NCBI GenBank assembly: GCA_016699875.1 | Contig: CP064989.1 | Coordinates: 10,631-74,630, forward strand | Origin: Candidatus Moraniibacteriota bacterium | Lineage (GTDB): Bacteria > Patescibacteriota > Minisyncoccia > Moranbacterales > UBA1568 | DNA: 64,000 nucleotides | Direction: 5' to 3' | Part shown: piece by piece, positions 8,450 through 39,710 of the stretch | Position numbering within the stretch: the stretch's first letter is position 1 | Layout of the letters: each line of letters opens with the position of its first letter | Position numbers and translations under genes: made by a program | Notes under the pieces: model-generated | Seen by the model: the letters and a program-made list of their open reading frames with translations, nothing else | Told to the model about the DNA's origin: nothing | Databases searched by the model: none

Positions 8450-9187
8450 GGCTCTAGACTATCAGATTCACTCTGTATAGTCTGGAATTATGTATAACTA
8501 CGCCAAAATATCAACATACAAAATCGGAAAAATAATTTCACACTTTTGCGTTGATGTTACTGCTTCCAAAACCGCTGTCCTGTTGGACATGAATCGCAAT
8601 GCGATCAACCATTGGTATGGTATCTTTCGCAGAGCGATCTATGTTCATCAGACGAAAGAATGCAAGAAAATATTCGGTGAAGCAGAGCTAGATGAGAGTT
8701 ACTTTGGAGCTCGAAGAAAGCGCGGATACCATGGAAAACTCAAGCGAGGACGAGGAACATTCAAGCAACCGGTGTTTGGTATTCTGAAACGTAACGGACG
8801 GGTATACACTGAGATCATACCAAACTGTAAGAAAGCAACACTTTTGCCCATCATCAGGGGAAAAGTCGATCCATCGACGGTTATCTATTCCGATGGTTGG
8901 AGAGGATATGACGGACTGGTTGATGTAGGGTATGACAAACACTTCAGAATGAATCACGGTGAGAATGAGTTTGCCAAGAGAGGCACTGGAATTCACATCA
9001 ACGGGATTGAAAACTTCTGGAGCTTTACCAAACGAAGACTCTCAAAGTTCAATGGGGTCAAAACTCATTTTGAACTCCATCTCAAGGACTGCGAATGGCG
9101 GTATGGGAAGGAAGTCGCGGTACTTGAGACAGAGTTGAAAAGAATAGTTCGACGGTATTTGAATTGTTAAAGTGATAGTCTAGAGCC
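8450..9187 (+). mobile_element. IS1595-family insertion sequence (about 738 bp) with 15-bp perfect terminal inverted repeats GGCTCTAGACTATCA
   Basis: IRL at 8450-8464 and IRR at 9173-9187 (reverse complement). They bracket a single ISXO2-like DDE transposase ORF. No convincing target-site duplication was seen. Confidence 0.75.
8490..9170 (+). CDS. IS1595-family (ISXO2-like) DDE transposase
   Basis: 'DESYFGARRKRGYHGKLKRGRGTFKQPVFGILKRNGRVYTEIIPN', 'IYSDGWRGYDGL', 'HFRMNHGENEFAKRGTGIHINGIENFWSFTKRRL' and 'ELHLKDCEWRY' match the DDE_Tnp_IS1595 domain. No N-terminal zinc ribbon is present. Confidence 0.85.
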   Translation: MYNYAKISTYKIGKIISHFCVDVTASKTAVLLDMNRNAINHWYGIFRRAIYVHQTKECKKIFGEAELDESYFGARRKRGYHGKLKRGRGTFKQPVFGILKRNGRVYTEIIPNCKKATLLPIIRGKVDPSTVIYSDGWRGYDGLVDVGYDKHFRMNHGENEFAKRGTGIHINGIENFWSFTKRRLSKFNGVKTHFELHLKDCEWRYGKEVAVLETELKRIVRRYLNC

Positions 9188-12017: not shown

Positions 12018-13721
12018 TTAAGAATCACTCCTCTCAGTTTCCGAGAGGAGAGCGTCTTTGTTTGCATCTTCAGAGAAAGTGACGGAATCTTTGGCGAAGC
12101 CGCTTGCTTGCATGTCTATGTTGTGTGAATCGGCTCCGGAGATCGTGAGACAGTCTTTGCGGACGAGAGGGCACTTGGTGTTTATGAACGAGAGATTGGC
12201 GCCATCCTTGATATCGAAGACCGTGCCCTTGGTGGGGACGGCAGTAACTCTGTCAAAAGTGATATATTCCGCCTTTTCTATTTGAGCGCCCCATTTCGAG
12301 GAAATTTTGACGTTCTTGAAAACAACGTCAATAATCGGCTGTTCCACGAGCCCGTTGATTTCTATTGAGCGATCGGTTTTCCCGACAGACATATCTTCGA
12401 TGGCGATGTTGCGAAAGAGGGGGATAGCGCCGCGGCCTTTGATAAAGGAGTTTTCATAGGCGGTTGTGAGTTGTACCGCAGCTATGGAGGCGTAGTCGAT
12501 ATTCACTATATTGGCGTGGATATTTTCTACGATTCCGCCGCGGCCCTTTGAGGACTTGATGCGGAACCCATACTGAACCATATTTGCGGAAAGGTTTTCA
12601 ATGAAAATATTGCGCACATCGCCGGACATCTCGCTCCCGATGGCGACAGCGGCATGCGCTTCGAGTATGGAATTATTTCTGATTAAGACATTTTCCGTTG
12701 GTTCTCGAACACGGAGACCGTCACTATTTCTTCCTGACTTGAGGACAATGGCATCATCGCCGGTACTGAAAACGTTATCCTCAATAAGGACATTTATTGA
12801 AGAGTCGAGTGCTACGCCATCGGTGCTTGGTCCGGCACTGGTCTCAATATGAACACCGCGAACAATGATATGTGTACTGTAGAGCGGATGAATCGTCCAC
12901 ATGGGACCGTTTTGTATGGTGACGCCCTCGACGAGTACGCGGTGGCAATTCATAAATTCGATGAATGCCGGGCGAAGAGCGTCTGCGACGGTTCCGAAAA
13001 CGCGCTCGGACACGGGTACATCGTCGTCGCCCATTCGGTAGAGATTTTTGATAGACTTGTTCCAGTCACGCATCGCTTCCCACCAAACGGCGCCTTGTCC
13101 ATCGAGCGTGCCTTCACCCGTAATGGCAACATTGAAAGCATTGGCAGTATAGATAGGAGCGGAATAGTTGTAATATTCAATGCCCTCGAAGCGAGAGAAA
13201 ACGACCGGCAGATACTCTTCAAAGTTCGTGCTGAAAAGAATGGTCGATCCCTTTTCGAGGTGAAGATTGATATTGCTTTTGAGATGTATCGCTCCGGTGA
13301 ACCAGGTGCCTTTGGGAACTTGGACGGTCCCGCCTCCGGTACTGGCGCAGTCCTCTATCGCTTTCCGAAACGCTTCAGTATCGGAGGTGATGCCATCACC
13401 CTTCGCACCGTAGTCGGCGATGGAACAAACTCTGTCCGGAAAACCCGTTTCCTCAATACTGAGCGAGCCACCGGAAAGTGTCTGAAGTGTGGCAATCGAT
13501 GTTGCCAGCGGAATGGATTGCGATATATCCGGGAATTCCCGAGGGATTTCCGGTTCGGTCGGCAGTGTTTCTTCGGGAGAAGCTTCTCTCGTAAAATCCT
13601 GTGATGATGAGAATATTGTTCGTATCCGGTCTCCGAACAGTTTCCAACCTCCAAGGATAACTCCGACAATGCAGAGAGCAAAAAGGAGGAGAAGAATGGC
13701 TGTTCGACGCTGCTGAATCAT
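12018..13721 (-). CDS. Membrane-anchored right-handed beta-helix glycoside hydrolase (GH28 / pectate-lyase-3 family)
   Basis: N-terminal TM helix. 'DYGAKGDGITSDTEAFRKAIEDCASTGGGTVQVPKGTWFTGAIHLKSNINLHL' is the hallmark of the Pectate_lyase_3/GH28 beta-helix. Paralogous to 23682-25217. Confidence 0.75.
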   Translation of the reverse strand: MIQQRRTAILLLLFALCIVGVILGGWKLFGDRIRTIFSSSQDFTREASPEETLPTEPEIPREFPDISQSIPLATSIATLQTLSGGSLSIEETGFPDRVCSIADYGAKGDGITSDTEAFRKAIEDCASTGGGTVQVPKGTWFTGAIHLKSNINLHLEKGSTILFSTNFEEYLPVVFSRFEGIEYYNYSAPIYTANAFNVAITGEGTLDGQGAVWWEAMRDWNKSIKNLYRMGDDDVPVSERVFGTVADALRPAFIEFMNCHRVLVEGVTIQNGPMWTIHPLYSTHIIVRGVHIETSAGPSTDGVALDSSINVLIEDNVFSTGDDAIVLKSGRNSDGLRVREPTENVLIRNNSILEAHAAVAIGSEMSGDVRNIFIENLSANMVQYGFRIKSSKGRGGIVENIHANIVNIDYASIAAVQLTTAYENSFIKGRGAIPLFRNIAIEDMSVGKTDRSIEINGLVEQPIIDVVFKNVKISSKWGAQIEKAEYITFDRVTAVPTKGTVFDIKDGANLSFINTKCPLVRKDCLTISGADSHNIDMQASGFAKDSVTFSEDANKDALLSETERSDS

Positions 13722-13737: not shown

Positions 13738-15597
13738 TTATTCCGAGGATGGGTTTCCTAAAAGGAGTTGCTCGGCGGGAATCACTTTCACAAAATTTTC
13801 CGGGCGATTGCCGATAACGAACGTCTTTGAGGTCTCTTCGGTTGCATATGCTTTTTTGAAATCAATAGGATCGCTGCCGGGGTGAGAAAGCTTTGTGGTT
13901 CTGGATCGACGCCCGGACGAGACTACGACATAGTCAAAATGGAGATCTCGCAAATCTTTCTGACTGAGTCCGGTGCGGCACTCCCCGATAAAGACGGCGC
14001 AGACAGCCCCCTTATCCGCCCATATGGAGATTTCGCGGGGATTTGGCAGGTGGTTGAGAAAGTCGGCGGCTTCCCAACTTCCATCGCCCATATCCTTCAA
14101 ATTGACGAAATAGGGTTCCGGAAGAAGAGATGATGTGTAGGCGAAATAGTACGGCTTGACGGAGAAAAGGCTGATGAATGAAAGAAGTGCCACCGCTGAT
14201 ATTGCGGCAAGGGAGGTGTGGGAATGCTTACGAAGGCGTTCGGACTTGAGAAGAAAAGCAATGCCAAGAGCAGCTAGAATAAAAGCGAAAGGGAAGATGG
14301 TTATTTGGTAGCGTATGGTGGCAACTACGTGATTGACGGTTGACGCGACGTAGTAGAGAAGGATAAAGAGCGTGATAAAGAAAGCTATTTTTGTTTCTTG
14401 TGACGTTATATACTTTTTTGTTGAGCCAAAAACAAGCGCTACAACCAGAGTAATAAGCGCAAACGGCGAAATGCCGAACATAAGACTATATAAATCGGCA
14501 ACGACAGTGTCGGTAAAAATATACAAGCGTGAGCTGTCTCCTCCGGAGCCTTTCGGAGAGGCAAGCGAGGCATCGGTATTGAAGAGACTCATGCCGTTGA
14601 GCGTATTCAGTAAGACGAAAAGAATAGCAGCAATAAAGAATATGAAAACCATTCGAATAAAAAGTATTCGATATCGTGAGAGGGTGTGCAAAATAGCGGC
14701 AGTAAATTTGTTCTTGAATAAAACAGCGTCGAGCGCAATAAGCGCAATGATGCTTGCAAAAAGCGGCCAGGTGCTCTCGAAAGCCTTGCTAAGGAATGTC
14801 CCTTCGAAGACCATTTCCGGATGCTTCCATGTCGCAGGGAAAAGCGCAAAGAATGTCGCCAGAGAGATGCTCACCAAGATGAGGTAATGAAGAGCTGATT
14901 GTCTTATGTAGGTTCGAAGATCCGGTTTTTCCTGAGAGAGGATGTACTCCAAAAAGGGAAGTGCGAAGAAGAATATATAGAGAATATTGGCGACGTATTT
15001 GGTAAGAAGAGAGAGTCCGAGGAGCACTCCGCTTGCATAGAGGTACTTTTTTTCAGCGCTTTTCTGGAAAACAAAATAGCTCAGTGTCGAGAGCGGAAGA
15101 AATATCCAGAGAAGCGAGTCGGGGTTGATAATGAGCGAGATTCCGAGGAGGATCGGTGAGAATCCTATAAAAACAAAGGCGATGAGAGCGGTCGTTTCAT
15201 CGAAGAGTTTTTTAAGAAGAATGAAAAAGAATGGGAGAGAGAGGAGACAAAAAAGAAAAATGGGCAGACGGAAGAAGAAGTTGATATCATTTATGGCTTG
15301 AAACTCTTCATCGGTTTTTACGTTATCGCGCAGACCCTTGTAGGGAAGGGGGTCTATTGTAAGAAGTCCGGCGCCGGAGAGGATTGCGGTCGTGATGCCG
15401 GGTTTGTCATTGATATTGGTGGATCGCCATTTTCCTTCGGCGATCGCCTTCCAAAACTTCGGTGTTCGCTGGTATGTCCAGTAGGGCTCATCAACTGCCG
15501 AATACGACTCGAGACGCGACAGTCCGAGCGCTAAGTTTATGGCAAGTACGGCAACGATAACAAGCGGCGCGAAGCACTTTCGGCAATTGAGTTTCAT
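13738..15597 (-). CDS. GT-C fold membrane glycosyltransferase (GT39/GT83, ArnT/PMT-like) with canonical DE motif
   Basis: More than 10 predicted TM helices. First loop reads 'SAVDEPYWTY'. Has a C-terminal soluble domain. Diverges from the neighbouring paralog at 15722. Confidence 0.7.
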   Translation of the reverse strand: MKLNCRKCFAPLVIVAVLAINLALGLSRLESYSAVDEPYWTYQRTPKFWKAIAEGKWRSTNINDKPGITTAILSGAGLLTIDPLPYKGLRDNVKTDEEFQAINDINFFFRLPIFLFCLLSLPFFFILLKKLFDETTALIAFVFIGFSPILLGISLIINPDSLLWIFLPLSTLSYFVFQKSAEKKYLYASGVLLGLSLLTKYVANILYIFFFALPFLEYILSQEKPDLRTYIRQSALHYLILVSISLATFFALFPATWKHPEMVFEGTFLSKAFESTWPLFASIIALIALDAVLFKNKFTAAILHTLSRYRILFIRMVFIFFIAAILFVLLNTLNGMSLFNTDASLASPKGSGGDSSRLYIFTDTVVADLYSLMFGISPFALITLVVALVFGSTKKYITSQETKIAFFITLFILLYYVASTVNHVVATIRYQITIFPFAFILAALGIAFLLKSERLRKHSHTSLAAISAVALLSFISLFSVKPYYFAYTSSLLPEPYFVNLKDMGDGSWEAADFLNHLPNPREISIWADKGAVCAVFIGECRTGLSQKDLRDLHFDYVVVSSGRRSRTTKLSHPGSDPIDFKKAYATEETSKTFVIGNRPENFVKVIPAEQLLLGNPSSE

Positions 15598-15721
15598 GAA
15601 AAAATCGAGAAATTACACATTTGGCAATACCCGAATGATACAAGAAATTCCCTCGGCTTGCAAAAATTTCAGGCTTTCAGAGCATCTTTCGGCTTTACGA
15701 ACGACGGAGGAGAATGATAGA

Positions 15722-17512
15722 ATGTCTCATATTGCCGTACGCGTTTGTATGGATATTCTGAGACAGTACAGATGGACTCTTGCCTTGCTCGCCATACTTT
15801 TTGGCGCTATTTTCGTGCGGACCTATTCCTTGGACGAGTGGCTCTATTTCAAGATGGACCAAGCGCGAGATGCGCTTCTGATTACCGATATTCTCGAAAA
15901 TGGGCCGAGCAGTCTTCCTCTTCTCGGTCCCCGGGTCGGTGCGGTAGAACTCAAGAGCGGGTTTCTGCGCCTGGGTCCCATATACTACTACTTTCAGTAT
16001 CTTGCCGGCATCTTGTTCCATTCGTCGGAGCCATCGGTTTTTGCGTATCCGGATGTATTCTTCTCAATCGCGGCGATTCCTCTCCTGTACGCGTTTGCCC
16101 GCCTTTACTTTGAGAAACGCCATGCGCTCATGGTAACGGCGATGTACGCTTTCTCGTTTCTGGTGATTCAATACTCTCGCTTTGCATGGAATCCAAACTC
16201 GTTGCAATTTTTCATTCTATTGAGTTTCTATGGACTCCTGCGATTTCTCAATGAGGAGCGATTTTCATCAAAATGCCGCTGGCTAGCTCTTTGGGCTGTT
16301 GGCAGTGCTATCGGTTCACAACTCCATTTTTTCGGATTTTTTAGTTTACTGGGTATTTCAGGACTCCTCGTGCTCTTTCATGGGCGCATTTGGAGGAAAA
16401 CATCCTGGCAGACAATGTTTCACAGAGAATCCCTTCGACAGTTCGCCGTATTCTCAGCTATAGTTGTCGGGATATTCGCTTTTTTCTACACGCCGGTTGT
16501 ATTGAGTGACAGTCTTCGCGGCGGAGAAAATACCAGGAACTTCTTTGAAGCGCTCGGATCGAAAGCGGAAAAGAAACCCCTTGTTGAGAAACTTCAGAAG
16601 ACGGTGACAGAAAATCTGAAGTATTCCTGCCTGTTGCTCACATCGGAATGTTATGCCGGCGACGTCGATTCTCAAGAGAATGTGCCATTTATTGTTCTCA
16701 CGGCCACGATATTTCTTGTCGGAGCGATATTGGCAGTTCGAGGACTGAGAAGGGAGGATAATACTCTCCGCCGTGATTTTCTAGCGCTTGCACTTCTCTG
16801 GATCGGCGTTTTTGTCGTGCTCACGGAACCGGTTTCCTTTCAGCTTCGACCGCGCTTCTACATTGTGATTTTTGCGATCCCGTTTCTTTTTCTGGGATTT
16901 CTCTATGAATTTCTTGAAAGTCGATTTGGCAGGCGAGTGTTTCCCGTATCGATTTTACTGACACTAGGTATCGTAGCGCTCAATGCTCATGGCACATTCC
17001 TGTGGTTTAGAGAACAGGCGAAGGCGCAAACGAAAGCGATCCCGGTAAAGCGGACTCTTATTTTAAAAACCAAGGATGGCGTAACACTCGGGCAACTGCG
17101 AGGTGCGGCGGACTGGGCATATGCTCGCATGAAACCAGGAAATACGCTCTACTATTATGTGAAACCGGAGCATCAGCGCCCGATCAAGTTTCTTTTGCGC
17201 TCGCATGGAGACAGCTTGCTTCGCGTCGAATCGCTTACGATAAATGAGGATCCGACGGCGCAATTTTTCGCAATCACGCCAGCAAAGAACGGCAAGAAAG
17301 ATGTTGCCAAAAAACTGAAGTTGTCCGAAGGAGACTGTATCATTCTTGATTCAAAACAATTCGGTGAGCTTCTGGTATCGGAGATAAACTTCCCAAATCG
17401 TCATATTTCCGATACGTTCAAATATAAAGAGAATAAAGAGGTTGATCGGGAAGGCGAGGGCGACCGAAGTTATTGGAGGGATATTCTCCCGGCACTGTCC
17501 GGGGAAGAGTAA
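15722..17512 (+). CDS. ArnT/PMT-like GT-C membrane glycosyltransferase, paralog 1 of 4 (DQARD variant)
   Basis: Start set to 'MSHIAV' (GGAGGA 13 nt upstream). The longer ORF would overlap the divergent gene. Carries 'DQARDALL', 'LGPIYYYFQ', 'AYPDVFFS' and 'YSRFAWNPN', followed by a C-terminal extracytoplasmic domain. Confidence 0.7.
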   Translation: MSHIAVRVCMDILRQYRWTLALLAILFGAIFVRTYSLDEWLYFKMDQARDALLITDILENGPSSLPLLGPRVGAVELKSGFLRLGPIYYYFQYLAGILFHSSEPSVFAYPDVFFSIAAIPLLYAFARLYFEKRHALMVTAMYAFSFLVIQYSRFAWNPNSLQFFILLSFYGLLRFLNEERFSSKCRWLALWAVGSAIGSQLHFFGFFSLLGISGLLVLFHGRIWRKTSWQTMFHRESLRQFAVFSAIVVGIFAFFYTPVVLSDSLRGGENTRNFFEALGSKAEKKPLVEKLQKTVTENLKYSCLLLTSECYAGDVDSQENVPFIVLTATIFLVGAILAVRGLRREDNTLRRDFLALALLWIGVFVVLTEPVSFQLRPRFYIVIFAIPFLFLGFLYEFLESRFGRRVFPVSILLTLGIVALNAHGTFLWFREQAKAQTKAIPVKRTLILKTKDGVTLGQLRGAADWAYARMKPGNTLYYYVKPEHQRPIKFLLRSHGDSLLRVESLTINEDPTAQFFAITPAKNGKKDVAKKLKLSEGDCIILDSKQFGELLVSEINFPNRHISDTFKYKENKEVDREGEGDRSYWRDILPALSGEE

Positions 17513-17521
17513 ATCGAGAAT

Positions 17522-19174
17522 GTGAAGTGGATGAATTTCAGAGATCGATGTTTTATTATGTTTCGGAAGCCCTCAGCATTTCGAACTGCTTGGATTCTCT
17601 GTGGTATTGTGGTGGTCGGCATATTTATCCGCACATATCACTTTCGGGAGTGGCTTCACTTCGGATCGGATCAGGCTCGTGATGTTATGCTGGTGGGCGA
17701 CGTGGTGCATGGAGTGGAGCCTTGGCCACTGCTTGGTATGGAGGCGGGAAATACCCGGTTTGATCTCGGTCCCGTCTACTACTATTTCCAAATAGCATCG
17801 GCGCATATCTTTGGTGTGCGCCCCGATACGCTGGCCTATCCGGATCTTTTGTTTTCCATTCTGACGATTCCGCTCGCTTTCTTCTTGTTCCGAAAACTCT
17901 TTGAGACGAATCTCTCACTTGCACTTACCGGGCTTTACTCGATTTCTTTTTACATAGTCGAGTATTCCCGCTTTGCATGGAATCCGAATATGATCCCATT
18001 TTTTGTCGGGCTTTTCCTGCTTTCTCTCACAGAGTTCATGGAAGCGGACGAGAAGACCAAGTGGCGATGGATATTCGCACTCGGCATAGCGATCGGTATC
18101 GGAGTGCAGCTGCATACGATATTACTCTTCTTGTTCCCGGCAATGCTGCTTGGCATGTTCCTTATCTTTTCGAAAAAGAATATTGGGGCCATAGTGCGTC
18201 TCGTCAGCATTGTCGCCATAGCTTTCGCACTGAATATTCCTCAAGCTATCAGTGAAGTTCAGACTCATGGAAAAAATACCAAACTCTTCTTCAAGGCGCT
18301 CACTGATCGTTCGGGAAGTGGCAGCTCGCAATTTGCAGAAAGTCTCAAAACAGATATCCTCTGTCATGCACAGGCAAATTCACATATGCTTTCGGCACTT
18401 GGACATCACGGTAATTGCAATTTTCTCTCCCTCATTGACCATCCGGAGAGATTCTCAGGCGGTTTCTCTTTACTGCTTGCATATGGCAGCATCATGCTCA
18501 GTGTCATCTTTTCTGCGATAGGATATGGACTGCTAGCATTCCTTGTTTTCACTGAGGCGGATCCGAAGCGACGGAAATTTCTTCTCGTTATTTTCATCTA
18601 TACGGGACTTTCATTTCTCATTCTTTTTTCAGTTATCATAGGAGCGCCGCTTCGGTATTTTATTCATGCGACGTTCATTCCTTTTATTCTGCTTGGATTG
18701 ATTCTTGTGCGGATTCGGAAGTATTCTTTTCCTTTTGCTCGAACAGTTGTTTGGGCAGTTATTGCCACGTCAGCACTGCTCAATGTCCGAGCGATTGGCA
18801 TTGAGGCGTCTCAACTTGCATCGGGGACGCGTGGAAATCCGGGATTTGTCGTGCTTGGTGAAGCGGAACGCATGGTAGACTATATGAGAGAGCGTTCCGG
18901 ATCATGGACGGAGGCGAATCTTGCCGGAGGGACGGCTTACTTTTCAACGTATTATAAACCGCTCAAATATATTGCCGCACAGAAAGGTCTTGATATTCAT
19001 CTGGCCAAGCGAAAGCGGCCTCCGGTTTCGGAAATCCCTTATTTCTTCGTCTACCGGCCCTCTGATCGAAGAGACCCGTCTTTTGCCAAAGGATATGATG
19101 TGCTTGATTATCGAGATTTCGGGCAGATAGGCATATATCACTTGCAAAGCGTGAAGTACCGAGTGCAAGAATGA
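17522..19174 (+). CDS. ArnT/PMT-like GT-C membrane glycosyltransferase, paralog 2 of 4
   Basis: 'DQARDVML', 'LGPVYYYFQ', 'LAYPDLLFS' and 'YSRFAWNPN'. Multi-TM N-terminal domain plus a C-terminal soluble domain. Confidence 0.7.
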   Translation: MKWMNFRDRCFIMFRKPSAFRTAWILCGIVVVGIFIRTYHFREWLHFGSDQARDVMLVGDVVHGVEPWPLLGMEAGNTRFDLGPVYYYFQIASAHIFGVRPDTLAYPDLLFSILTIPLAFFLFRKLFETNLSLALTGLYSISFYIVEYSRFAWNPNMIPFFVGLFLLSLTEFMEADEKTKWRWIFALGIAIGIGVQLHTILLFLFPAMLLGMFLIFSKKNIGAIVRLVSIVAIAFALNIPQAISEVQTHGKNTKLFFKALTDRSGSGSSQFAESLKTDILCHAQANSHMLSALGHHGNCNFLSLIDHPERFSGGFSLLLAYGSIMLSVIFSAIGYGLLAFLVFTEADPKRRKFLLVIFIYTGLSFLILFSVIIGAPLRYFIHATFIPFILLGLILVRIRKYSFPFARTVVWAVIATSALLNVRAIGIEASQLASGTRGNPGFVVLGEAERMVDYMRERSGSWTEANLAGGTAYFSTYYKPLKYIAAQKGLDIHLAKRKRPPVSEIPYFFVYRPSDRRDPSFAKGYDVLDYRDFGQIGIYHLQSVKYRVQE

Positions 19175-19274
19175 GCGGTTATTGTCATCGCTGCTGATAC
19201 AGAGAGTTGAATTTGATATTCGCCAAACGGTACATGGGTAACGCAGGTCATTCACCACGAGCCTTTCTCTGACT

Positions 19275-20852
19275 ATGAATTCTTTTGTCAGTACATTTCG
19301 GAAAATTTCCCCATCCGTATTCGTCCTCGCGGCGATTTTCATCATCGGAATATTTTTGCGCACGTTTTATTTTCATGATTGGCTTCGATTCAATGCCGAT
19401 CAGTCAAGGGATGCCGGTATTGTGAGCGATGTTGTTGAAGGGAAAACGCCGGCTCCGCTCCTCGGTCCGAAAGCTGGCGGAACAGAGTTTCGTCTCGGGT
19501 CGGCATTTTATATTTTTCAAATTGCTTCTGCGAGTCTCTTCGGAAATCGGCCTGACACAATGGCGTATCCTGACCTCATAAGTTCTCTTCTTGCCATCCC
19601 GCTTCTCTACGCTTTCCTGCGTCTGTATTTCGAGAGAAAGACTGCGCTCTTCCTGACAGCTCTCTTTGCGGTTTCTTTCTATGGAGTGAAGTATTCTCGC
19701 TTTGCGTGGAATCCGAATTCATTGCCTTTCTGGACGCTGCTCTTTTTCTTTTCTTTGCATCGTCTTCTGGCATTTCCGGAAAAGGCCGGGGTGGTATGGA
19801 GCATCATTTTGGGAGTCGCGCTGGGTGTCGGTGTTCAATTGCACACGTTGACGCTCATATTGTTTCCTATAGCGGCCGCACTTACATTCGGATATCTCGC
19901 ATTCTTACGAAGAGAACGTCTCGGAAGAGTATTCCTGGTAGTCTCAACAGTGGCTGTTCTCCTGAATGCCGGACAGATACTGAGTGAGATTCGAACGGGC
20001 GGAGAAAATCTGTCGGCATTCTTTTCCGGGATTGATGCAAAAGAAGAGAAAGGATCCGGTTTTTCAAAGAACATCGTAAAAGACTCGGTTTGTTTCGTTC
20101 AGGGAAGCGTGTATATCCTAACTTCGCACGAGATTTCCGACACTTGCGATACGAAATCTATCAGAAATGGCTCTAATGGAATATTTTTTGCCGGAGGCAT
20201 TCTTCTTTTCTTTGGCGGGATAGCACTTGCTTTTCGGGCATTTTATCGTGAGCGAGAGGCGTCAAAACGATATTTTCTTATAATAAACATGGCGTTTCTT
20301 TTACTTTCATTTCTTTTGTTCATTCCGCTTGCCAATGAAATATCAATGCGATTCTTCCTCGTGACCGTATTTCTGCCCTTTATATTGCTCGGTCTCTGGT
20401 TTAACCTCTTTGTCGAGGTCTTTCCGCGTTGGGCATTTGTCGGAATAGCGGCTATTTCATCGATATTGATACTCGCCAATGTATATGCGGTACAGCAATC
20501 CTTTTCCGAATATGCCTCATACTTGGACAAACATTCCGAAGCGGGGATGGACAATGTCTTGCTTCGTGAAGTCGAAGAAGCTGCGGATTTTATCGTCAGC
20601 CGTTCGGGAGATTCGAATACAGTCTCGCTTGGAGGAGATTCGAGATATCTTTTCAAGGCATTGAAATCTATTCGGTACTTTACGGAAAAGCAGGGAATCG
20701 ATATTATCCAACAGAAGAATGGAAAAACAGATACTTTTCCTCAATTTATTGTTGACAACACAAAGCATGCCGATGATTTCCTCAAAGAAAACCCCGATGT
20801 GATAGACTGGAAAACAATCGGACGGTTTACTCTTTTCCAAGTACGTAGATGA
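19275..20852 (+). CDS. ArnT/PMT-like GT-C membrane glycosyltransferase, paralog 3 of 4
   Basis: 'DQSRDAGI', 'MAYPDLISS' and 'YSRFAWNPN'. Confidence 0.7.
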   Translation: MNSFVSTFRKISPSVFVLAAIFIIGIFLRTFYFHDWLRFNADQSRDAGIVSDVVEGKTPAPLLGPKAGGTEFRLGSAFYIFQIASASLFGNRPDTMAYPDLISSLLAIPLLYAFLRLYFERKTALFLTALFAVSFYGVKYSRFAWNPNSLPFWTLLFFFSLHRLLAFPEKAGVVWSIILGVALGVGVQLHTLTLILFPIAAALTFGYLAFLRRERLGRVFLVVSTVAVLLNAGQILSEIRTGGENLSAFFSGIDAKEEKGSGFSKNIVKDSVCFVQGSVYILTSHEISDTCDTKSIRNGSNGIFFAGGILLFFGGIALAFRAFYREREASKRYFLIINMAFLLLSFLLFIPLANEISMRFFLVTVFLPFILLGLWFNLFVEVFPRWAFVGIAAISSILILANVYAVQQSFSEYASYLDKHSEAGMDNVLLREVEEAADFIVSRSGDSNTVSLGGDSRYLFKALKSIRYFTEKQGIDIIQQKNGKTDTFPQFIVDNTKHADDFLKENPDVIDWKTIGRFTLFQVRR

Positions 20853-20903
20853 CGAAATTCCAAGCGTCAAGCGTATTGTCTCTATCTCATTTAGCGAGCA
20901 GTT

Positions 20904-21602
20904 ATGAAGAAGCAGTCAAACATGATCTTTGCCGCAGATGATTTCGGCATTAGTCAAAAAGCGAATGAGCGAATCTTGAAGCTTGCCGAGGCGGGAGTGC
21001 TTGATCGTGTAGCCGTTATGACAAAGGGAGGTGCAACCAAAGAATCTTTGGATCGTCTCGCGAGATCGGCCGTAAAAATCGATCTTCATGCCGAGCTTCG
21101 CGATGATATCGACCCCAATAGAAAACTTGCTGCGGGTGCATTCCGAAGAACTCTCACATTTATGAAGAACCTCTTTTTCGGAGAGAACCGACCGGCTCAG
21201 GTTGCTGCTCGCTGGGAAGCGCAGATTCTCGATTTCCATTCCATGTTTGGAAAGTATCCCGACGGATTGAACTCGCATGAACACACTCATTTCTTCCCGC
21301 CATACTTCAAGCATGCTCTCTATTTAGCGCGGAAATATCACATCTCGTTTATTCGATTTGGGAGAGAATCATTTCCGGGAGGCGCAGCGGTTTCATATAT
21401 TCTCAATACGCTTCGGCTGGTAGATAAGAGGTCATTCTCTCGAGCGAACATTGCCTCATCGGATATAATGGTCAGTTTCGATTGGATAAGATCACTCGAT
21501 GTTCTCAAAGGATATCCGAAAGAAAAATCCATTGAAATATTGTTTCACCCCGAGCGTGATGAAGAGATGATTTTTTTGGAAGAAAATTTTCTTGAGAAGT
21601 GA
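20904..21602 (+). CDS. YdjC/ChbG-family carbohydrate deacetylase
   Basis: 'IFAADDFGIS' near the N-terminus, and 'LNSHEHTHFFP' as the His-rich metal-site motif of the YdjC family. Confidence 0.75.
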   Translation: MKKQSNMIFAADDFGISQKANERILKLAEAGVLDRVAVMTKGGATKESLDRLARSAVKIDLHAELRDDIDPNRKLAAGAFRRTLTFMKNLFFGENRPAQVAARWEAQILDFHSMFGKYPDGLNSHEHTHFFPPYFKHALYLARKYHISFIRFGRESFPGGAAVSYILNTLRLVDKRSFSRANIASSDIMVSFDWIRSLDVLKGYPKEKSIEILFHPERDEEMIFLEENFLEK

Positions 21603-21652
21603 AAATTTTCGCAATGATGAGAAGTTGAACGAGTTATTTTTTTGAAAGTGAT

Positions 21653-23272
21653 ATGAGTGTCTGGAAAATATGGCAGGAAAAAATACGAAGCAGAAAGCGT
21701 ATCCAATATATACTCCTCGCCAGTATTGTTGTGCTTGGCCTGTTTCTTCGAACTTTCCACTTTCAATCATGGATGGAGTTCTCTCCGGATCAGGCGCGCG
21801 ATGCAGCACTTATCGATGATGTTCTCTCCGGAGAGAAGTCACTGCCGTTTCTCGGTGCCGAATCCGGAAACACAGGATTCAAGCTTGGCCCGATAGCGTA
21901 TCACTGGCAGTATCTTTCCAGCCTGCTTTTCGGGTCCGAACCGTACAATTTGGCATATCCGGATCTCCTCTTTTCGATATTTGCCATCCCTTTGTTTTTC
22001 TTGTTGATGCGGAAGTACTTTGCCGCTGAAATATCGCTCGTGCTTACTTTCTTCATGAGCTCATCGTTTTTTCTTGTGAAATACGCTCGCTTCGCTTGGA
22101 ATCCGAATGCCGCCCCATTTTTCTCAGCTCTCTTTCTCTTTTCGCTTCTTGAGGTGCTTGATCCCAAGAGGAAGGACAAGCTTCTCTGGCCGGCACTTTT
22201 GGGTATTTCAATGGGAATTGCCATTCAATTGCATACGCTCTTCATATTTATTCTTCCAGCTGTTGCCGGTGTCGGGTTTCTTATTTGGATCAAACGCAGA
22301 CTCTTCTCATGGCGAGGACTCGTACTGTTTGTTGCATGCTTCCTGGTTATGAATTGGGCGCAGATATATCGCGATGCAAATCACAACTATTCGAATGTCA
22401 ACCGCTTCCTCAAAGCTATTACAAAGACGTCATCAGGAGATGGCGAAAACATGTTGCTGAGAAATATGGATGAAGCAACTGCTTGTGAGGTGCAATCAAG
22501 CGCCTACATTGTTTCGTCATGGGGAAACCTTGGGAAATGCGAAGTCTGGGAATCTGTCTTGCGTCCACATGATACGGAGTTGCGAATAACTTTTATTCTT
22601 GGATTTATCCTGGTCTTTGGCGGGTATGTACTGCTCGGTTATTACTGGCAGCGGGAAGATAATGATAGACGGCGAGACTTTCTTTTCTTTGCGGGACTTT
22701 ACGCTCTGGTTGCTTTCATAATGAGTGTTCCCATAATCACACAAGTTTCCACGCGTTACTATATTACTTCTTTTTTCATTCCGTTTGTTCTCCTCGGGCT
22801 ATGGATGAAATTCCTTGGAGGGCAATCGGGAAGAATCAGTGTGATATTCAAGATACTACTGCTCGCCTTGATAATCATTCTTGTCGCGGGCAATACACGT
22901 TCAATTGTCTCATGGTCGGAAAAGCTCGCTCACGGTTCGGCAAGTGACTCGAAAACCGTATTTTATACCGAGGTACGAGATATGATGAGTTATATGGAAG
23001 AATCCTTGCCTCAACAAAGTATCGGCCTCCTTGGAAACAATGACTATATGTCTCGATTCTTGAAACCACTCAATTACTTCGCCGTGCGCGACAGCATCGA
23101 ATTGCTTGACCTTTCCAATAAACACCGGGATCCGGAGGGAAGATTCTTCTACATAGGCGGCGTCATCCCCGAATCAGAACTGCTTACACAATCAACATAC
23201 AAAGGGTACATCATTGAGAGTTATCGATTGTTTGGTCAGGTTATGATATTGATGCTTCGAACAAAAGAATGA
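21653..23272 (+). CDS. ArnT/PMT-like GT-C membrane glycosyltransferase, paralog 4 of 4
   Basis: 'DQARDAAL', 'LGPIAYHWQ', 'LAYPDLLFS' and 'YARFAWNPN'. Confidence 0.7.
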   Translation: MSVWKIWQEKIRSRKRIQYILLASIVVLGLFLRTFHFQSWMEFSPDQARDAALIDDVLSGEKSLPFLGAESGNTGFKLGPIAYHWQYLSSLLFGSEPYNLAYPDLLFSIFAIPLFFLLMRKYFAAEISLVLTFFMSSSFFLVKYARFAWNPNAAPFFSALFLFSLLEVLDPKRKDKLLWPALLGISMGIAIQLHTLFIFILPAVAGVGFLIWIKRRLFSWRGLVLFVACFLVMNWAQIYRDANHNYSNVNRFLKAITKTSSGDGENMLLRNMDEATACEVQSSAYIVSSWGNLGKCEVWESVLRPHDTELRITFILGFILVFGGYVLLGYYWQREDNDRRRDFLFFAGLYALVAFIMSVPIITQVSTRYYITSFFIPFVLLGLWMKFLGGQSGRISVIFKILLLALIIILVAGNTRSIVSWSEKLAHGSASDSKTVFYTEVRDMMSYMEESLPQQSIGLLGNNDYMSRFLKPLNYFAVRDSIELLDLSNKHRDPEGRFFYIGGVIPESELLTQSTYKGYIIESYRLFGQVMILMLRTKE

Positions 23273-23329
23273 TATTTTAGGATGTTCCACCATGGAAGCG
23301 CACGTGCTTTCCCGACTAAAAACGGAATG

Positions 23330-23650
23330 TGTCTCCGGTATCGCTCGCTTTTTCGTTTCAATGCGAACAGCACTCATTCTAGTGGGGATTACATGCGTTG
23401 GAATATGGAATTCCATATCGGACCGATTACACACTACTTCTCGTTTCTTTCGGGGTTAATCCTCGGTTGGACGCCGGCAGCGCTGGCGTACCCGGATCTT
23501 TTGTTTTCCGTGCTCACCATTCCATTGATGTATGTACTCATTGCGAAGATGTTTGGCAGAAACATGGCATTGGTCTTTCCAACGGCAATATCCGGATTCA
23601 TTGTAATAACCGAAATTAATGATCAAGAAATCATAAATCGCATTGCAAGT
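23330..23650 (+). pseudogene. Decayed internal fragment of a further GT-C paralog
   Basis: 'MEFHIGPITHYFSFLSGLILGWTPAALAYPDLLFSVLTIPLMYVLIAKMF' aligns to the 'LGPVYYYFQ...LAYPDLLFSILTIPLAFFLF' block of the paralogs. It lacks the N-terminal DQARD region and everything after the equivalent of TM4, and is only 136 codons in ORF context. Confidence 0.5.
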
Positions 23651-23681
23651 GGACGCGTCAGTATGTTTCAAATAAGGGAGT

Positions 23682-25217
23682 ATGGCAAATAAAAAACAAC
23701 TTCTCACTGTAGTGGCACTCTCCATCTCTGCACTCTTCCTAATTGGCGGAGCACTTTTCTTCAAGATCAATTTCATCGCTCACAAAAAGAATGACACGCT
23801 TTCGAAAGAAGCTGCGCGTGAGACAGTGAAGGGTGTTGATAGCAATACTCTGACAATCCCACAAACACTCTCTCTTTCGGAGCCTGTATTCCCCGATAGA
23901 GTATGCAATATCATGGATTTCGGGGCAATCGGAGATGGACAAACCATGAATACCGATGCTTTCCGAGAAGCTATTGCGGAATGCTCTCGACTCGGTGGCG
24001 GAAAGATAGTTGTTCCGAAAGGGGAATGGTTGACTGGTCCGATTGTTTTGCAGAACAATATATGGCTTTTCCTCGAACAGGATTCTGAGATCCTTTTTAG
24101 TGCTCAGAAAAACGATTACCTTCCTGTTGTCCGTTCGCGATTCGAAGGTGTTGAATACTACAATTATTCCCCGCCCCTCTCCGCGAGAAACGCGAAGAAC
24201 ATTGCAATTACCGGAAAGGGGACGCTGAACGGGCAAGCAGAGAAGTCATGGTGGACATCGGTGGATGATCCGAGAGTGGCGGCCTCTATGATGGAACTGT
24301 ACACAATGGGGCAAAACGGCACCCCTATTAACGATCGGGTCTTTGGAGGAGAGAAGGGGCTACGGCCGGCATTTATAGAGTTTTTCGAGTGTCAGACGGT
24401 GCTTATTGAGGGCGTTACTTTTGTAAACGGCCCCATGTGGACGATTCACCCGCTCTATAGCGATACCCTCACTATTCGCGATGTTTCTATTCGAACGCAT
24501 GATGGAAGAAATACGGACGGAATCGTCGTAGATTCTTCGCAAAACGTCGTCATCGAAGGCTCAAAATTTTCTACAGGAGACGATGCTATTGCCATAAAAT
24601 CAGGGAGAGACAACGATGGGATGCGCGTCGGGAGGCCATCAAAGAATATCCTCATAAAGAACTGTGCCGTTGAAGAGGCTCATGCAGCCATAGCTATTGG
24701 CAGCGAGGTTTCCGGCGGGATACAAGATGTTTTTGTAGATACGATGCATGTGAAAGAAGCTGATTTCGGCATTCGTATGAAATCGAGTCCCGGGAGAGGT
24801 GCTTCTGTCCATACGATCCGAATTCAAAATATGAACATTGAAAGTGCGCGGATTGCCGCAATCGAACTCGACCAGATGACTGGCGAAGCCGTATCAGTCG
24901 GGACGGATCTCACAGACTTTAGCGATATTCGTATTGCAAATATACGGTGCGATTGGACCAGAAAGCCCTTTCTACTGAATGGAGCCGCTGAAAACCCTCC
25001 GTACGACATAGAACTGAACAATCTTTCACTCTCCGCAAGCGGAACAGCGCTCCTGAAAAATGTTCAACAAATACTCCTTAAAGATATCACTTTCGCATCC
25101 TCAAGAAAGGGGAAGGAAGCCGGTCTTGAGGTGATTGACAGCAAAGATATCGTCATTGACCAAATAAACCTTCCGAAAGAAAGGATGCTCTGTGCAAAGG
25201 GATGTACTTACCGGTAG
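23682..25217 (+). CDS. Membrane-anchored beta-helix glycoside hydrolase (GH28 / pectate-lyase-3 family), paralog of 12018-13721
   Basis: N-terminal TM helix. 'DFGAIGDGQTMNTDAFREAIAECSRLGGGKIVVPKGEWLTGPIVLQNNIWLFL' is collinear with the first copy along its whole length. Confidence 0.75.
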   Translation: MANKKQLLTVVALSISALFLIGGALFFKINFIAHKKNDTLSKEAARETVKGVDSNTLTIPQTLSLSEPVFPDRVCNIMDFGAIGDGQTMNTDAFREAIAECSRLGGGKIVVPKGEWLTGPIVLQNNIWLFLEQDSEILFSAQKNDYLPVVRSRFEGVEYYNYSPPLSARNAKNIAITGKGTLNGQAEKSWWTSVDDPRVAASMMELYTMGQNGTPINDRVFGGEKGLRPAFIEFFECQTVLIEGVTFVNGPMWTIHPLYSDTLTIRDVSIRTHDGRNTDGIVVDSSQNVVIEGSKFSTGDDAIAIKSGRDNDGMRVGRPSKNILIKNCAVEEAHAAIAIGSEVSGGIQDVFVDTMHVKEADFGIRMKSSPGRGASVHTIRIQNMNIESARIAAIELDQMTGEAVSVGTDLTDFSDIRIANIRCDWTRKPFLLNGAAENPPYDIELNNLSLSASGTALLKNVQQILLKDITFASSRKGKEAGLEVIDSKDIVIDQINLPKERMLCAKGCTYR

Positions 25218-25347: not shown

Positions 25348-26286
25348 CTAAGATTTCCTCCGAATGATATATAAGGGACGACCGAGAACTTCCCGGTGAA
25401 TATTCTCAATATAAAGTGAGAGTAACCCAATAGACATAAGGAGAATGCCTACAAGAAAGACAATGAAGATGGCAAGATTTTCGGCATCAGAGAATGTCGA
25501 GGCGAAATGCCAGCGAAAGAAATATTTTCCAAGCAATATGTAGAAACCGGCAATGGAAGAAGTAGCCGTTATGAAAATGCCCAGATAACCAGCCAACCGA
25601 AGCGGGAGGAGACTCAGTGAGACAAAGCTGTTGAAAGCAAGTCGAGCCAATTTCCAAAAATTGTAACTCGCCGTCCCATGGAGTCGCTCATGAGCATCGA
25701 AGAATATATAGGTACGCTTAAATCCCATCCAATCGATAAGTCCGCGCGTCATTCGATTGACTTCGGTAAGTCGATTGAATTCATTGACCACCATCCGATC
25801 AAGAAGTCGAAAATCAGTTGAGTTTGGCACAACCTTTGTCTCAACAATTTTGTTGAGTATGGCGTAAAAAATGACGGATCCAACTTTCTTTATCCATGAA
25901 TCGCTCCGGCTTTTGTTCCGAATGCCCACTACAACTTCAAAACCGCGCTCCCACTGATTGACAAACTCAGGGATCAATTCGATTGGATGCTGAAGATCCG
26001 CATCTATAAGAATACATGCATTCCCGGAAGCATGGTGAAGTCCGGCAGTTGTCGCTATTTCTTTACCGAAATTTCTCGAGAAATCAATATATCGTATACG
26101 CGAGTCACGTGAAGACGCTTGTTTCAGAACCTCCAGCGTCTCATCGGTGCTTCCATCATTGACGAAGAGAATTTCGTAGGAGTATGCTTCACCAAGCGAC
26201 TCAAGTATTGGTTGCGCCCGCTCACAGAAAACAGGGATATTCTCCGCTTCATTGTGTGCAGGGACAATTATGGAGATAACCTTCAT
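25348..26286 (-). CDS. GT2 polyprenyl-phosphate glycosyltransferase (DPM1/GtrB/ArnC-like, lipid-linked sugar donor synthase)
   Basis: 'MKVISIIVPAHNEAENI', 'VNDGSTDET' and 'ILIDADLQHP' form a GT-A catalytic domain. Two C-terminal TM helices are typical of Dpm1/GtrB/ArnC. The longer upstream extension has no support. Confidence 0.8.
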   Translation of the reverse strand: MKVISIIVPAHNEAENIPVFCERAQPILESLGEAYSYEILFVNDGSTDETLEVLKQASSRDSRIRYIDFSRNFGKEIATTAGLHHASGNACILIDADLQHPIELIPEFVNQWERGFEVVVGIRNKSRSDSWIKKVGSVIFYAILNKIVETKVVPNSTDFRLLDRMVVNEFNRLTEVNRMTRGLIDWMGFKRTYIFFDAHERLHGTASYNFWKLARLAFNSFVSLSLLPLRLAGYLGIFITATSSIAGFYILLGKYFFRWHFASTFSDAENLAIFIVFLVGILLMSIGLLSLYIENIHREVLGRPLYIIRRKS

Positions 26287-26465
26287 AAGAGAGAATCGTG
26301 ACAAGCGAGATAAAAACAAGCCTTCTTTCTTTGAAGTATATCGTAAAAAAAGCATGAGTGTAAAGAGCAGAACACTCTATTATGGCTATTCCTTGCCATT
26401 TTAAAGATTCTCTGGTAGGCTAGTTGAGGCTACGAAAGAAGCTCTATTTTCTCTTAAAGATAAAC

Positions 26466-37877: not shown

Positions 37878-39710
37878 ATGGTGGACATACATGAGAAGAA
37901 ACAGACAACCTCTTCCCCGCTTTTATTGTCCGAATCAGACGCCTCAATCGTTGAGCGAATTTCAGGAGCTTGGATAGCATTTCTCTTCGGAGCATTCCTT
38001 TTGGCTATAGGCGGGAAATTCACCGATAATACAATTCTTTTTCTTTCTCTTGCTGTAGTGACAGGCGCACTTATAGCGCTCCGGAAACTACGCCCATCGA
38101 AGAAATTCGCACTGGTCAGTGTAGCGATCTTTTTCTTCATCTTCAGTACCTCTTTTTCGCCCTCCCCTTCCGCATCTGTTTTTTCGGGACGTGACCAAGG
38201 ATCGTATGCAGAAGCAGCTATTCGACTTGCACACGAACATTCATTGCACTCATATACCCCCTCTGTTGAAAGAAACTTCTTCCGCCTCTACGGAACTGGG
38301 AAGGCTCTCAATTTCCCGGGATTTTTCTTCGCTCCGGATGGGTCACTCGTTACGCAATTTCCGCTTGGAAATATCGCTTGGTTTGGAGCAAACATTTCAC
38401 TGTTCGGCATAGCTGGACTCTCCATTGCCAATGCGTTTACGCTTTTCATATCACTTCTCGTCCTTTTTACCCTCCTATGGAGATTCTTGCCATTCCAATT
38501 CGCCGTCGGAGGAGTGGCTATTGCCGCACTTTCGTTCCCCTTCATATGGATACAAGAGCAGACATTGAGTGAAAATCTCGCACTCCCTCTCTTCCTCATA
38601 CTCTCCTTCTGTGCCGTCTTATTCCTGAATCAACCGAGACGATGGACATACTTGCTGGCCCTATCGTCATCGGTATTTCTTTGCCTGACCCGCATAGAAG
38701 GTTTTGCGATTCTCGTGGCCGTGGCAACCCTCTTTCTTTCCCGGGGAAGCTCTCGGAAATACATCCTCACACATTGGCCCACAACAATCCTGTTTGCACT
38801 AGTCGTAACCGGAGCCGTTATTGGTGTGGATATTTTCTTTAACACACCCTTCTATAAAACAATAGGAAAAGCCGCTACCGAATCATCCGCCAATACTTCG
38901 CAGGTGATCCCCTCATTTATTTCCTCGGCATTACATTCGATTGTACACGTATCAAGTGTATTCTGGACATACGGGATAATCTCAGTAACATCGCTTTCGC
39001 TCCTCGGCATCGTGTTTCTTTTCAAAAAACGGGAGCATCTCAAGCTCGTACCCTTCTGGTTGGCACTGCCGACATTTGCCTACATTTTCAGTCCCCAGAT
39101 ATCCTCGGACCATCCCTGGATGCTCCGGCGATTTGTATTTGCATTCTGGCCGACTGTTGTCATATTAGCTATCTTCGCACTCGCGCAGTTGCAAAGATAC
39201 TTCAAGAATCGCTACCCGGAGAAAATTATATTCAGGCCGACCATTTTCTCGGCTCTATTCAGTACACTCCTCATTCTCCCTGCAATCCCTGCGACCGCGC
39301 CAAGACTTTTTTTTGCTGAGAATAGAAATTTACTCGCCGATGTCGAAACGCTTTCAAACAACTTCTCCGATCATGATCTTGTGCTTGTTGATCGTATGTC
39401 ATCCGGAGATCCATTCTCAATTATTGCCGACCCCATGAGTACTTTGTTTGGGAAGAATGCTGTGTACTTCTTTAATCCGAGTGATCTCTCGAACATTGAC
39501 ACGGATCAATTCGAACATATATACCTCATTGCCCGAGATGGAGATGAGATAGCATATCAGACAGCTTTTAAACACCGGTTCGAATTACAAAAGATTCATC
39601 CGTATACACTGCGGACATCCCTCTTCAGTCGCGAAACCGACTCCTCTCGATTATCAGTTCGAAATGATGCCATCGTATCAGGATCGATATTTCTTGTTGT
39701 GCCAAAATGA
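37878..39710 (+). CDS. Multi-TM membrane protein, putative GT-C fold glycosyltransferase (ArnT-like motif 'RDQGSYAEAAIRLA')
   Basis: More than 10 TM helices. The first loop holds 'SGRDQGSYAEAAIRLA', which resembles the ArnT DEXRYAE motif with E->Q as in the 15722-23272 paralogs. Followed by 'QFPLGN'. Confidence 0.5.
   Translation: MVDIHEKKQTTSSPLLLSESDASIVERISGAWIAFLFGAFLLAIGGKFTDNTILFLSLAVVTGALIALRKLRPSKKFALVSVAIFFFIFSTSFSPSPSASVFSGRDQGSYAEAAIRLAHEHSLHSYTPSVERNFFRLYGTGKALNFPGFFFAPDGSLVTQFPLGNIAWFGANISLFGIAGLSIANAFTLFISLLVLFTLLWRFLPFQFAVGGVAIAALSFPFIWIQEQTLSENLALPLFLILSFCAVLFLNQPRRWTYLLALSSSVFLCLTRIEGFAILVAVATLFLSRGSSRKYILTHWPTTILFALVVTGAVIGVDIFFNTPFYKTIGKAATESSANTSQVIPSFISSALHSIVHVSSVFWTYGIISVTSLSLLGIVFLFKKREHLKLVPFWLALPTFAYIFSPQISSDHPWMLRRFVFAFWPTVVILAIFALAQLQRYFKNRYPEKIIFRPTIFSALFSTLLILPAIPATAPRLFFAENRNLLADVETLSNNFSDHDLVLVDRMSSGDPFSIIADPMSTLFGKNAVYFFNPSDLSNIDTDQFEHIYLIARDGDEIAYQTAFKHRFELQKIHPYTLRTSLFSRETDSSRLSVRNDAIVSGSIFLVVPK

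Follow-up and report, generated by a model that had tools for sequence, protein, structure and literature searches.

Could membrane glycosyltransferases in which the catalytic Asp-Glu (DE) pair of ArnT and of the protein O-mannosyltransferases (PMTs) has become Asp-Gln (DQ) form a subfamily of their own, and what would such enzymes do? This question is raised by four tandem genes, here paralogs A to D, in a 64,000-nucleotide stretch of a Candidatus Moraniibacteriota genome (contig CP064989.1, positions 10,631 to 74,630), referred to below as the window. We propose that the four genes are most likely ancient paralogs of one ArnT/PMT-like integral-membrane subfamily with the GT-C(A) fold. The subfamily is real, lineage restricted, and unnamed, and no named, characterized subfamily with this constellation of residues was found in the databases and literature searched. 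Translations and a motif scan match the strings of the original prediction exactly, with DQ(A/S)RD in all four paralogs and RFAWNPN common to them:

15722-17512, plus strand: paralog A; DQARDALL (DQARD at nucleotides [nt] 15857-15871), YSRFAWNPN (RFAWNPN at nt 16178-16198), and QLH (nt 16319-16327).
17522-19174, plus strand: paralog B; DQARDVML (DQARD at nt 17669-17683) and YSRFAWNPN (RFAWNPN at nt 17969-17989).
19275-20852, plus strand: paralog C; DQSRDAGI (DQSRD at nt 19398-19412), YSRFAWNPN (RFAWNPN at nt 19698-19718), and QLH (nt 19836-19844).
21653-23272, plus strand: paralog D; DQARDAAL (DQARD at nt 21788-21802), YARFAWNPN (RFAWNPN at nt 22088-22108), and QLH (nt 22226-22234).

Residues are numbered after paralog B, in which the positions discussed are D50, Q51, R53, D54, L82, R150, N154, P155, N156, Q196, L197, H198, and R378. 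All four proteins score above the curated gathering threshold of Pfam PMT_2 (PF13231; 26.1 bits), with 29.6 bits for A, 50.8 for B, 38.8 for C, and 29.0 for D, and paralog A is above the cutoff of Pfam PMT as well. The hidden Markov model (HMM) of the family, A1, gives 429 bits for A, 569 for C, and 590 for D. Pairwise identity among the four is merely 25-35%, and they fall into four different deep clades in a rough, indicative neighbor-joining tree rooted on the DE-type family described below. Paralog B is 100% identical to a protein from a Candidatus Moraniibacteriota metagenome-assembled genome (MAG) annotated as "glycosyltransferase family 39 protein." The open reading frame (ORF) of paralog A opens at 15539, 61 codons 5' of the likely start at 15722, and this extension (15539-15721) shares 59 bp with the divergent gene 13738-15597 (minus strand), at the 5' end of the latter; the start at 15722 is favored by the lengths of the orthologs (583-598 aa).

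The AlphaFold2 model of paralog B, built from a 47-sequence alignment, reaches a predicted local distance difference test score of 91.7 and a predicted template modeling score of 0.91. When the model was compared with the PDB using Foldseek, the first match was ArnT from C. metallidurans (5ezm; E 3.5e-8, template modeling score 0.52, sequence identity ~13%), followed by STT3/AglB/PglB, ALG12, AftA, DPY19, and the PMTs, and GT-C enzymes accounted for 27/27 of the top matches. ArnT (GT83; 5EZM/5F15), which transfers 4-amino-4-deoxy-L-arabinose to lipid A, is therefore the best structural match, and it shares with the model both an Asp-bearing helix after the first transmembrane helix (TM1) and a C-terminal extracytoplasmic alpha/beta domain. 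The PMTs (GT39; yeast Pmt1/Pmt2, 6P25, and the S. coelicolor and M. tuberculosis Pmt) share the GT-C(A) fold and the Asp of the DE pair, with weak and partial structural matches (template modeling scores of 0.32-0.34). The DQ motif lies ~12 residues past TM1 and opens the first loop helix (residues 49-62 of the model), in a loop that the positive-inside rule places outside the membrane, the N terminus being rich in Lys and Arg. The features expected of GT-C(A) proteins are present, namely a multi-TM core, a helix-bearing loop after TM1, similarity to solved GT-C enzymes, and the conserved Asp of the first extracytoplasmic loop (D50, aligned with D55 of ArnT). Judged from the predicted structure, the proteins are GT-C(A)-fold enzymes nearest to ArnT.

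Does the DQ block correspond to the DE loop? An alignment of 461 family sequences compared with ArnT by hhalign matched over nearly the whole length (Prob 87%, E 3.9e-6; 73% with a smaller family alignment). Column confidence was high where F-G-S-D-Q-A-R-D meets W-Q-P-D-E-T-R-Y, which puts D50, Q51, and R53 of the D-x-x-R pattern on the D-E-x-R of ArnT. For the reference, E. coli ArnT (NC_000913) was aligned to the 5EZM chain, D31/E32 of E. coli corresponding to D55/E56 of C. metallidurans, K61 to K85, D135 to D158, and K179 to K203; the C. metallidurans numbers are used below. A third homolog search, seeded with the E. coli and C. metallidurans ArnT sequences, yielded only near relatives from Escherichia and Citrobacter, by which the profile gained little depth. 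The array also has a DE-bearing relative next to it, as had been predicted:

13738-15597, minus strand: canonical DE-type GT-C gene, divergent to the array; translation reads AVDEPYW; Pfam PMT_2/PMT, above the PMT_2 threshold.

The family of this neighbor has invariant D36-E37, K65-P66, N158-P-D160, T199-K200, and R429 (R-Y). Its alignment with the DQ family is good (hhalign Prob 91%), with NPN on NPD, QLH on LTK, and R378 on R429. Since the neighbor family aligns only weakly with ArnT (Prob 1.5-10%), the chain from family to neighbor to ArnT is weaker than the direct alignment. Furthermore, one orthologous clade within the family reads DEARD while retaining all other family signatures, and Q and E therefore share one site. 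A chance resemblance of the DQ block to a nonhomologous DE loop is ruled out by the alignment, the topology, and this in-family DE clade.

Simpler searches were less informative. Single-sequence phmmer searches of the PDB with paralog B or the DE-type neighbor yielded no relevant match, nor did the profile of the neighbor family, and the 47-sequence profile of the DQ family gave one marginal match, to yeast Pmt2 (E 1.6), which nonetheless helped to place the SRF..N/D segment. The best NCBIfam match of the family, TIGR03663 (Agl23 type), scores 26-35 bits against a curated cutoff of 126.25, and the match to Pfam PMT is partial, with 35 bits versus 211 bits for E. coli ArnT.

The DE pair had also been implicated in metal binding. 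This attribution falls away for its Glu, which is not documented as a metal ligand in ArnT or the PMTs; in Pmt1, this Glu is salt-bridged to R138 of loop 1 (PMC7801869). The DQ family departs from this arrangement, with Gln at position 51 in 91-95% of ~480 members and no invariant loop-1 Arg equivalent to R138 identified. The first Asp alone is shared by all GT-C enzymes (PMC7801869; PMC11127046), and S. coelicolor Pmt retains full function in vivo with the E114A change (PMC8698208). Compared with the DExRYAE of ArnT, the family motif is D-Q-x-R-D, from which the YAE part is absent. The second Asp, D54, is invariant, lies at +4 from D50 on the same helix (DQxxD), and is aligned with the Tyr of RYAE.

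More telling than the E-to-Q change is, according to the alignments, a coordinated replacement of the equivalents of ArnT K85, D158, and K203. The RFAWNPN block, which the original prediction did not assign to a known GT39 or GT83 family, turns out to align with "LIINPD" of the neighbor and with the "LD158" segment of ArnT, or "RxxLLD" of the PMTs. Indeed, both hhalign and hmmalign place "SRFAWNPN" on "SL-IINPD" of the neighbor family, and the family profile sets "ySRFAWNpNsipFF" against "GRFILLDSMLLFF" of yeast Pmt2, the S-R-F before TM4 falling on GRFILLD. In the ArnT alignment, D158 (D135 in E. coli) falls on P155, between both Asn residues, with low column confidence. The model has N154-N156 in a short loop directly N-terminal to TM4 (helix from residue 158); in ArnT, D158 sits just before TM4 and is salt-bridged to K203, located just after TM5 (PMC7801869). 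The equivalent block of S. coelicolor Pmt is R228-L231-L232-D233, in which D233A and D233N are inactive, and at K302, the equivalent of K203, Ala, His, and Arg are all not tolerated (PMC8698208). RFAWNPN is therefore the family's form of a known GT39/GT83 block, with the essential Asp exchanged for Asn (N-x-N).

The invariant Q196-L-H198 aligns with high confidence with "M-T-K203" of ArnT (K179 in E. coli) and "L-T-K200" of the neighbor, and in the model H198 lies at a helix break directly after TM5, matching the position of K203. L82 is aligned with K85 (K61 in E. coli) of "F-E-K-P," at a site that is Leu, Ile, Val, or Met in >95% of members; the Pfam PMT_2 register concurs, residue 83 of paralog B and residue 62 of E. 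coli ArnT both being profile position 3. Set against ArnT, the family therefore has Leu in place of the Lys85 that contacts the carrier phosphate (E-K-P-P) and N154-P-N156 plus H198 in place of the Asp158-Lys203 pair. Set against the PMTs, it has Asn for D233 and His for K302 of the S. coelicolor enzyme, with R-F-A-W-N-P-N and Q-L-H instead of RxxLLD, and it lacks the MIR domain.

How constant is this constellation? The survey comprised 257 database members and 223 full-length ORFs from 70 other genomes or GTDB loci, ~480 sequences together. Among the database members, the pair reads DQ in 244, DE in 5, EQ in 2, and TQ in 1; D54 is found in 249, QLH in 245, H198 in 255, and N154/N156 in nearly all. 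The full-length ORFs have DQ in 204 cases, DE in 10, DA in 4, DT in 1, and IQ in 1, with D54 in 219, NN in 209 and SN in 11 (Asn156 in 220/223), QLH in 208, and H198 in 223/223. Apart from the EQ, TQ, and IQ sequences for D50, the residues D50, D54, N156, and H198 are essentially invariant across sequences that share ~35% identity. The invariant signature is thus D...D/NxN/QLH, in which Gln is strongly preferred but not obligatory. Because the paralogs are only 25-35% identical and yet the motifs are near-universal in relatives, these motifs reflect family-wide constraint rather than chance.

The subfamily is consequently distinct, as had been proposed, but the E-to-Q change is not what defines it: DE and DA clades keep its other signatures. 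As to the co-variation of DQxRD and RFAWNPN, for which a survey of homologs had been suggested, N-x-N is near-universal and DQ prevails at the frequency given above. In the indicative tree, DQ clades enclose the main group of DE sequences as well as the DA group. Two orthologous classes with variant motifs were seen in other loci, with no member in the window: D-A-F-R-D (L002 8322-9998, L007, L059, and L066) and D-E-A-R-D, which goes with SRFASNPN (L004 4989-6635 and orthologs).

When 1.84 billion cluster representatives were searched with the family profile, 600 clusters (50% identity) matched at E<=1e-30, a number that rose to 2108 at E<=1e-10. For paralog B, at least 120 relatives are listed, and those with taxon names are Moranbacteria/Pacebacteria-type MAGs of the candidate phyla radiation (CPR). 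When one genome per GTDB species was scanned for the pattern, 280 relatives turned up; the best 80 belong to Moraniibacteriota, Parcubacteria, Paceibacterota, or Patescibacteria MAGs, except for a few labeled "uncultured Bdellovibrionales" or "Candidatus Fimivivens" and several whose labels ("uncultured bacterium" or "MAG: bacterium") give no taxon. The family seems to be restricted to Moraniibacteriota and related Parcubacteria. In several "uncultured Bdellovibrionales" MAGs (L008, L010, L049, L074, and L077), loci are up to 78% identical to the present array; these labels probably reflect mislabeled CPR bins.

One further gene of the window had been noted as carrying the same E-to-Q change, and its translation bears this out:

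37878-39710, plus strand: GT-C-like multi-TM protein, 610 aa; RDQGSYAE, reading GRDQGSYAEAAIRLA.

Its RDQGSYAE is close to the PDEGRYAE of ArnT and is kept in a 53%-identical metagenomic homolog (L078). The protein has no Pfam match and can be aligned with the DQ family by hhalign only weakly (Prob 44%, E 2e-4; DQ falls on DQ). Because the NxN and QLH sites are occupied by S-E-N and L-T-R, we assign it, by sequence, to a different GT-C-like family, outside the DQxxD/NxN/QLH family.

What could the DQ enzymes do? Relevant clues come from the genes around and within the array:

12018-13721, minus strand: GH28-like beta-helix protein with a membrane anchor, encoded downstream of the DE-type GT-C gene; Pfam Glyco_hydro_28, 1e-27.
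20904-21602, plus strand: YdjC-like carbohydrate deacetylase, between paralogs C and D; Pfam YdjC, 1.8e-28; PDB match to a chitooligosaccharide deacetylase.
23282-23692, plus strand: degraded fifth DQ-family paralog, 136 aa; A1 HMM E 7e-24 over profile positions 69-127, the tail matched by phmmer to the C termini of family members.
23682-25217, plus strand: another GH28-like protein with a membrane anchor, at the array's end; Pfam Glyco_hydro_28, 5.5e-32.
25348-26355, minus strand: GtrB/ArnC-type GT2; phmmer against the PDB, Synechocystis GtrB (5ekp) E 5.5e-70 over the full length and ArnC E 2.5e-38.

Most of the 70 related loci have the same core, in which 3-8 tandem DQ paralogs lie divergent to a DE-type GT-C gene. 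From fold, homology, residue correspondences, conservation, and synteny, we infer that the paralogs are probably extracytoplasmic transferases that depend on polyprenyl-phosphate-sugar donors, with the catalytic Asp kept and the rest of the ArnT/PMT pocket rewired; activity, donor class, acceptor, and the roles of individual residues are proposed here in this conditional sense. The GT2 protein, which has two TM helices at its C terminus and carries a DADLQHP motif, would probably make the lipid-linked donor, a polyprenyl-monophosphate-sugar, for the GT-C array; the use of a donor supplied by an ArnC/GtrB-type GT2 would be a probable feature in common with ArnT. In this genome, the donor might then be N-deacetylated by the YdjC-like enzyme, whose presence suggests that some of the genomes use an amino-sugar donor. 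Each paralog would move the sugar, with inversion, onto a cell envelope glycan or protein at the outer face of the membrane, separate paralogs possibly providing separate acceptor or linkage specificities.

Within the pocket, the rewiring would consist of E56 to Gln (usually), K85 to Leu, D158 to Asn-x-Asn, K203 to His, and a new Asp at +4. D50 may position or activate the acceptor, D54 may provide a second carboxylate, and a neutral hydrogen-bond network of Gln, Asn, and His could substitute for the salt bridges formed by Glu-Arg in the PMTs and by Asp-Lys in ArnT. Altered donor specificity or an altered mechanism, as suggested originally, is in light of these replacements a reasonable hypothesis.

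Several observations weigh against this proposal. The GT2 gene is present in only ~14 of the ~70 related loci and the YdjC gene in just 3 (L008, at the same position, L065, and L069), and no GtrA-type flippase was found among the small ORFs nearby in the window. Neither the database relatives nor literature searches on CPR/Moranbacteria GT39/ArnT-like families provided a characterized family member. Regarding the pocket, the register between NPN and D158 is uncertain by 1 to 2 residues, reflecting the low column confidence, with no conserved acid in the segment, and the clustering of D50, D54, Q51, N154, N156, and H198 in one pocket is deduced from homology. The replaced residues are also not trivially dispensable, since D233N and K302H/R abolish the function of S. 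coelicolor Pmt (PMC8698208), and an uncharged pocket could point to another reaction.

The proposal competes with three rival accounts and a bolder one. If the proteins were ordinary ArnT/PMT-type enzymes, the substitutions would be functionally neutral family decoration, leaving chemistry and substrate class unchanged. The activity of E114A in Pmt, the in-family DE and DA clades, and the universality of the first Asp alone are all consistent with this, but the retention of Gln in 91-95% of ~480 sequences despite ~35% identity, the essentially invariant Asn156 and His198, and the intolerance of the Pmt positions even to conservative change (D233N and K302H/R) argue against it. As the neutrality of four coordinated changes is hard to accept, we regard this account as unlikely. 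At the other extreme, the proteins might be noncatalytic or nontransferase relatives with the catalytic apparatus of ArnT/PMT lost (scaffolds, or subunits that associate with a flippase or bind the carrier), a view consistent with the missing equivalents of K85, D158, and K203 and with the "flippase activity-associated protein Agl23" family being the best NCBIfam match. That match is, however, far under its cutoff (26-35 bits versus 126), the catalytic D50 is invariant, a second Asp has been gained at D54, and the replacements are invariant polar residues, as is typical for an active pocket, making a loss of catalysis very improbable.

Adaptation to anionic sugars is a third account, in which the family would transfer, or act upon, glycans with uronic acid (e.g., from polyprenyl-phosphate-galacturonic acid), and E-to-Q and D-to-N, by taking two carboxylates out of the pocket, would relieve charge repulsion. 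ArnT-family galacturonic acid transferases exist in Rhizobium, and two membrane-anchored proteins of the GH28 (polygalacturonase) family flank the array. Both carry (S/N)TD, GDD, and R(I/M)K motifs, and such NTD/GDD/RIK-like motifs we take to be significant for the GH28 assignment. GH28-like proteins occur in ~15 related loci, and 1060-aa proteins of other genomes (P0211 and P0223) are fusions of the GH28 domain with the DE-type GT-C; these fusions speak for a functional connection, perhaps to a glycan that contains uronic acid. The link and the fusion concern the DE-type gene, however, and not the DQ-type genes. Moreover, the window ORFs that were scanned revealed neither a uridine diphosphate (UDP)-sugar dehydrogenase nor an epimerase, the loss of two lysines (K85 and K203) is contrary to simple charge repulsion, and YdjC indicates an amino sugar instead, so that this account appears more doubtful still than neutral decoration.

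We also entertained, as a long shot, that the DQ family is a mechanistically distinct GT-C class, in which both salt-bridge pairs and the carrier-phosphate lysine, essential in ArnT and the PMTs, are gone and catalysis would rely on a pocket with a single carboxylate (or an Asp-Asp i/i+4 pair) and His, possibly for acidic (uronic acid) donors or acceptors; arrays and GH28-like partners would then build a new polyuronide-type CPR surface glycan. We consider that polyprenyl-phosphate-sugar-dependent transferases with a rewired pocket account better for the data.

Such enzymes would have precedents. In Francisella, the YdjC-family protein NaxD deacetylates undecaprenyl phosphate-linked N-acetylgalactosamine, after which a GT-C enzyme transfers galactosamine (PMC11279074); because of this pathway, the combination of GT2, YdjC, and GT-C follows a known logic for amino-sugar transfer. 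The GtrB-like GT2, GT-C, and YdjC proteins of the window resemble the three-component GtrA/GtrB/Gtr* systems, Francisella FlmF2-NaxD-FlmK, and ArnC-ArnD-ArnT. These systems differ in having a single GT-C enzyme rather than 4-8 tandem paralogs and a GtrA or ArnE/F-type flippase, which was not identified nearby, and YdjC is not a constant partner in the DQ loci. Likewise, in place of an arnBCADTEF operon, the window has the GtrB-like GT2, YdjC, GH28, and further GT-C genes, and no arnB, arnA, arnD, arnE, or arnF gene was found among the window ORFs scanned.

The tandem arrangement is reminiscent of mycobacterial EmbA/B/C and AftA-D, several GT-C paralogs, partly in tandem, that use a polyprenyl-phosphate donor, each with its own linkage specificity; AftA and EmbB are among the Foldseek matches of the paralog B model. 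By this analogy, the arrays suggest a stepwise or multisite glycosylation of an envelope polymer. The Emb/Aft sets differ in that they belong to GT53/GT85, have a DDx motif and large carbohydrate-binding domains, and, apart from the fold, show no detectable relationship in sequence.

Key structures of the envelope are the work of GT-C enzymes, among them lipid A modifications, protein O-mannosylation, and arabinan, and the mechanism of these enzymes is commonly framed around a few charged residues. A large conserved clade that keeps the catalytic Asp and replaces four residues essential elsewhere is a natural experiment on which residues are required. The arrays also represent an expanded envelope glycosylation machinery in uncultured Moraniibacteriota, with up to eight paralogs per ~1-Mb genome.

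The array itself appears to have lost a member. The remnant at 23282-23692 retains approximately residues 85-155, together with the final ~30 residues, of a full-length member, the DQ loop being gone, which implies an N-terminal truncation and a large internal deletion, as judged from its sequence. At the place of this remnant, the closest relative, L008, has a full-length 644-aa GT-C gene of the DE type (A2 class). Outside the cluster, an IS1595/ISXO2-like DDE transposase ORF lies upstream at 8490-9170 (plus strand), and a very large ORF of 1721 aa occupies 356-5521 (minus strand) at the left edge of the window.

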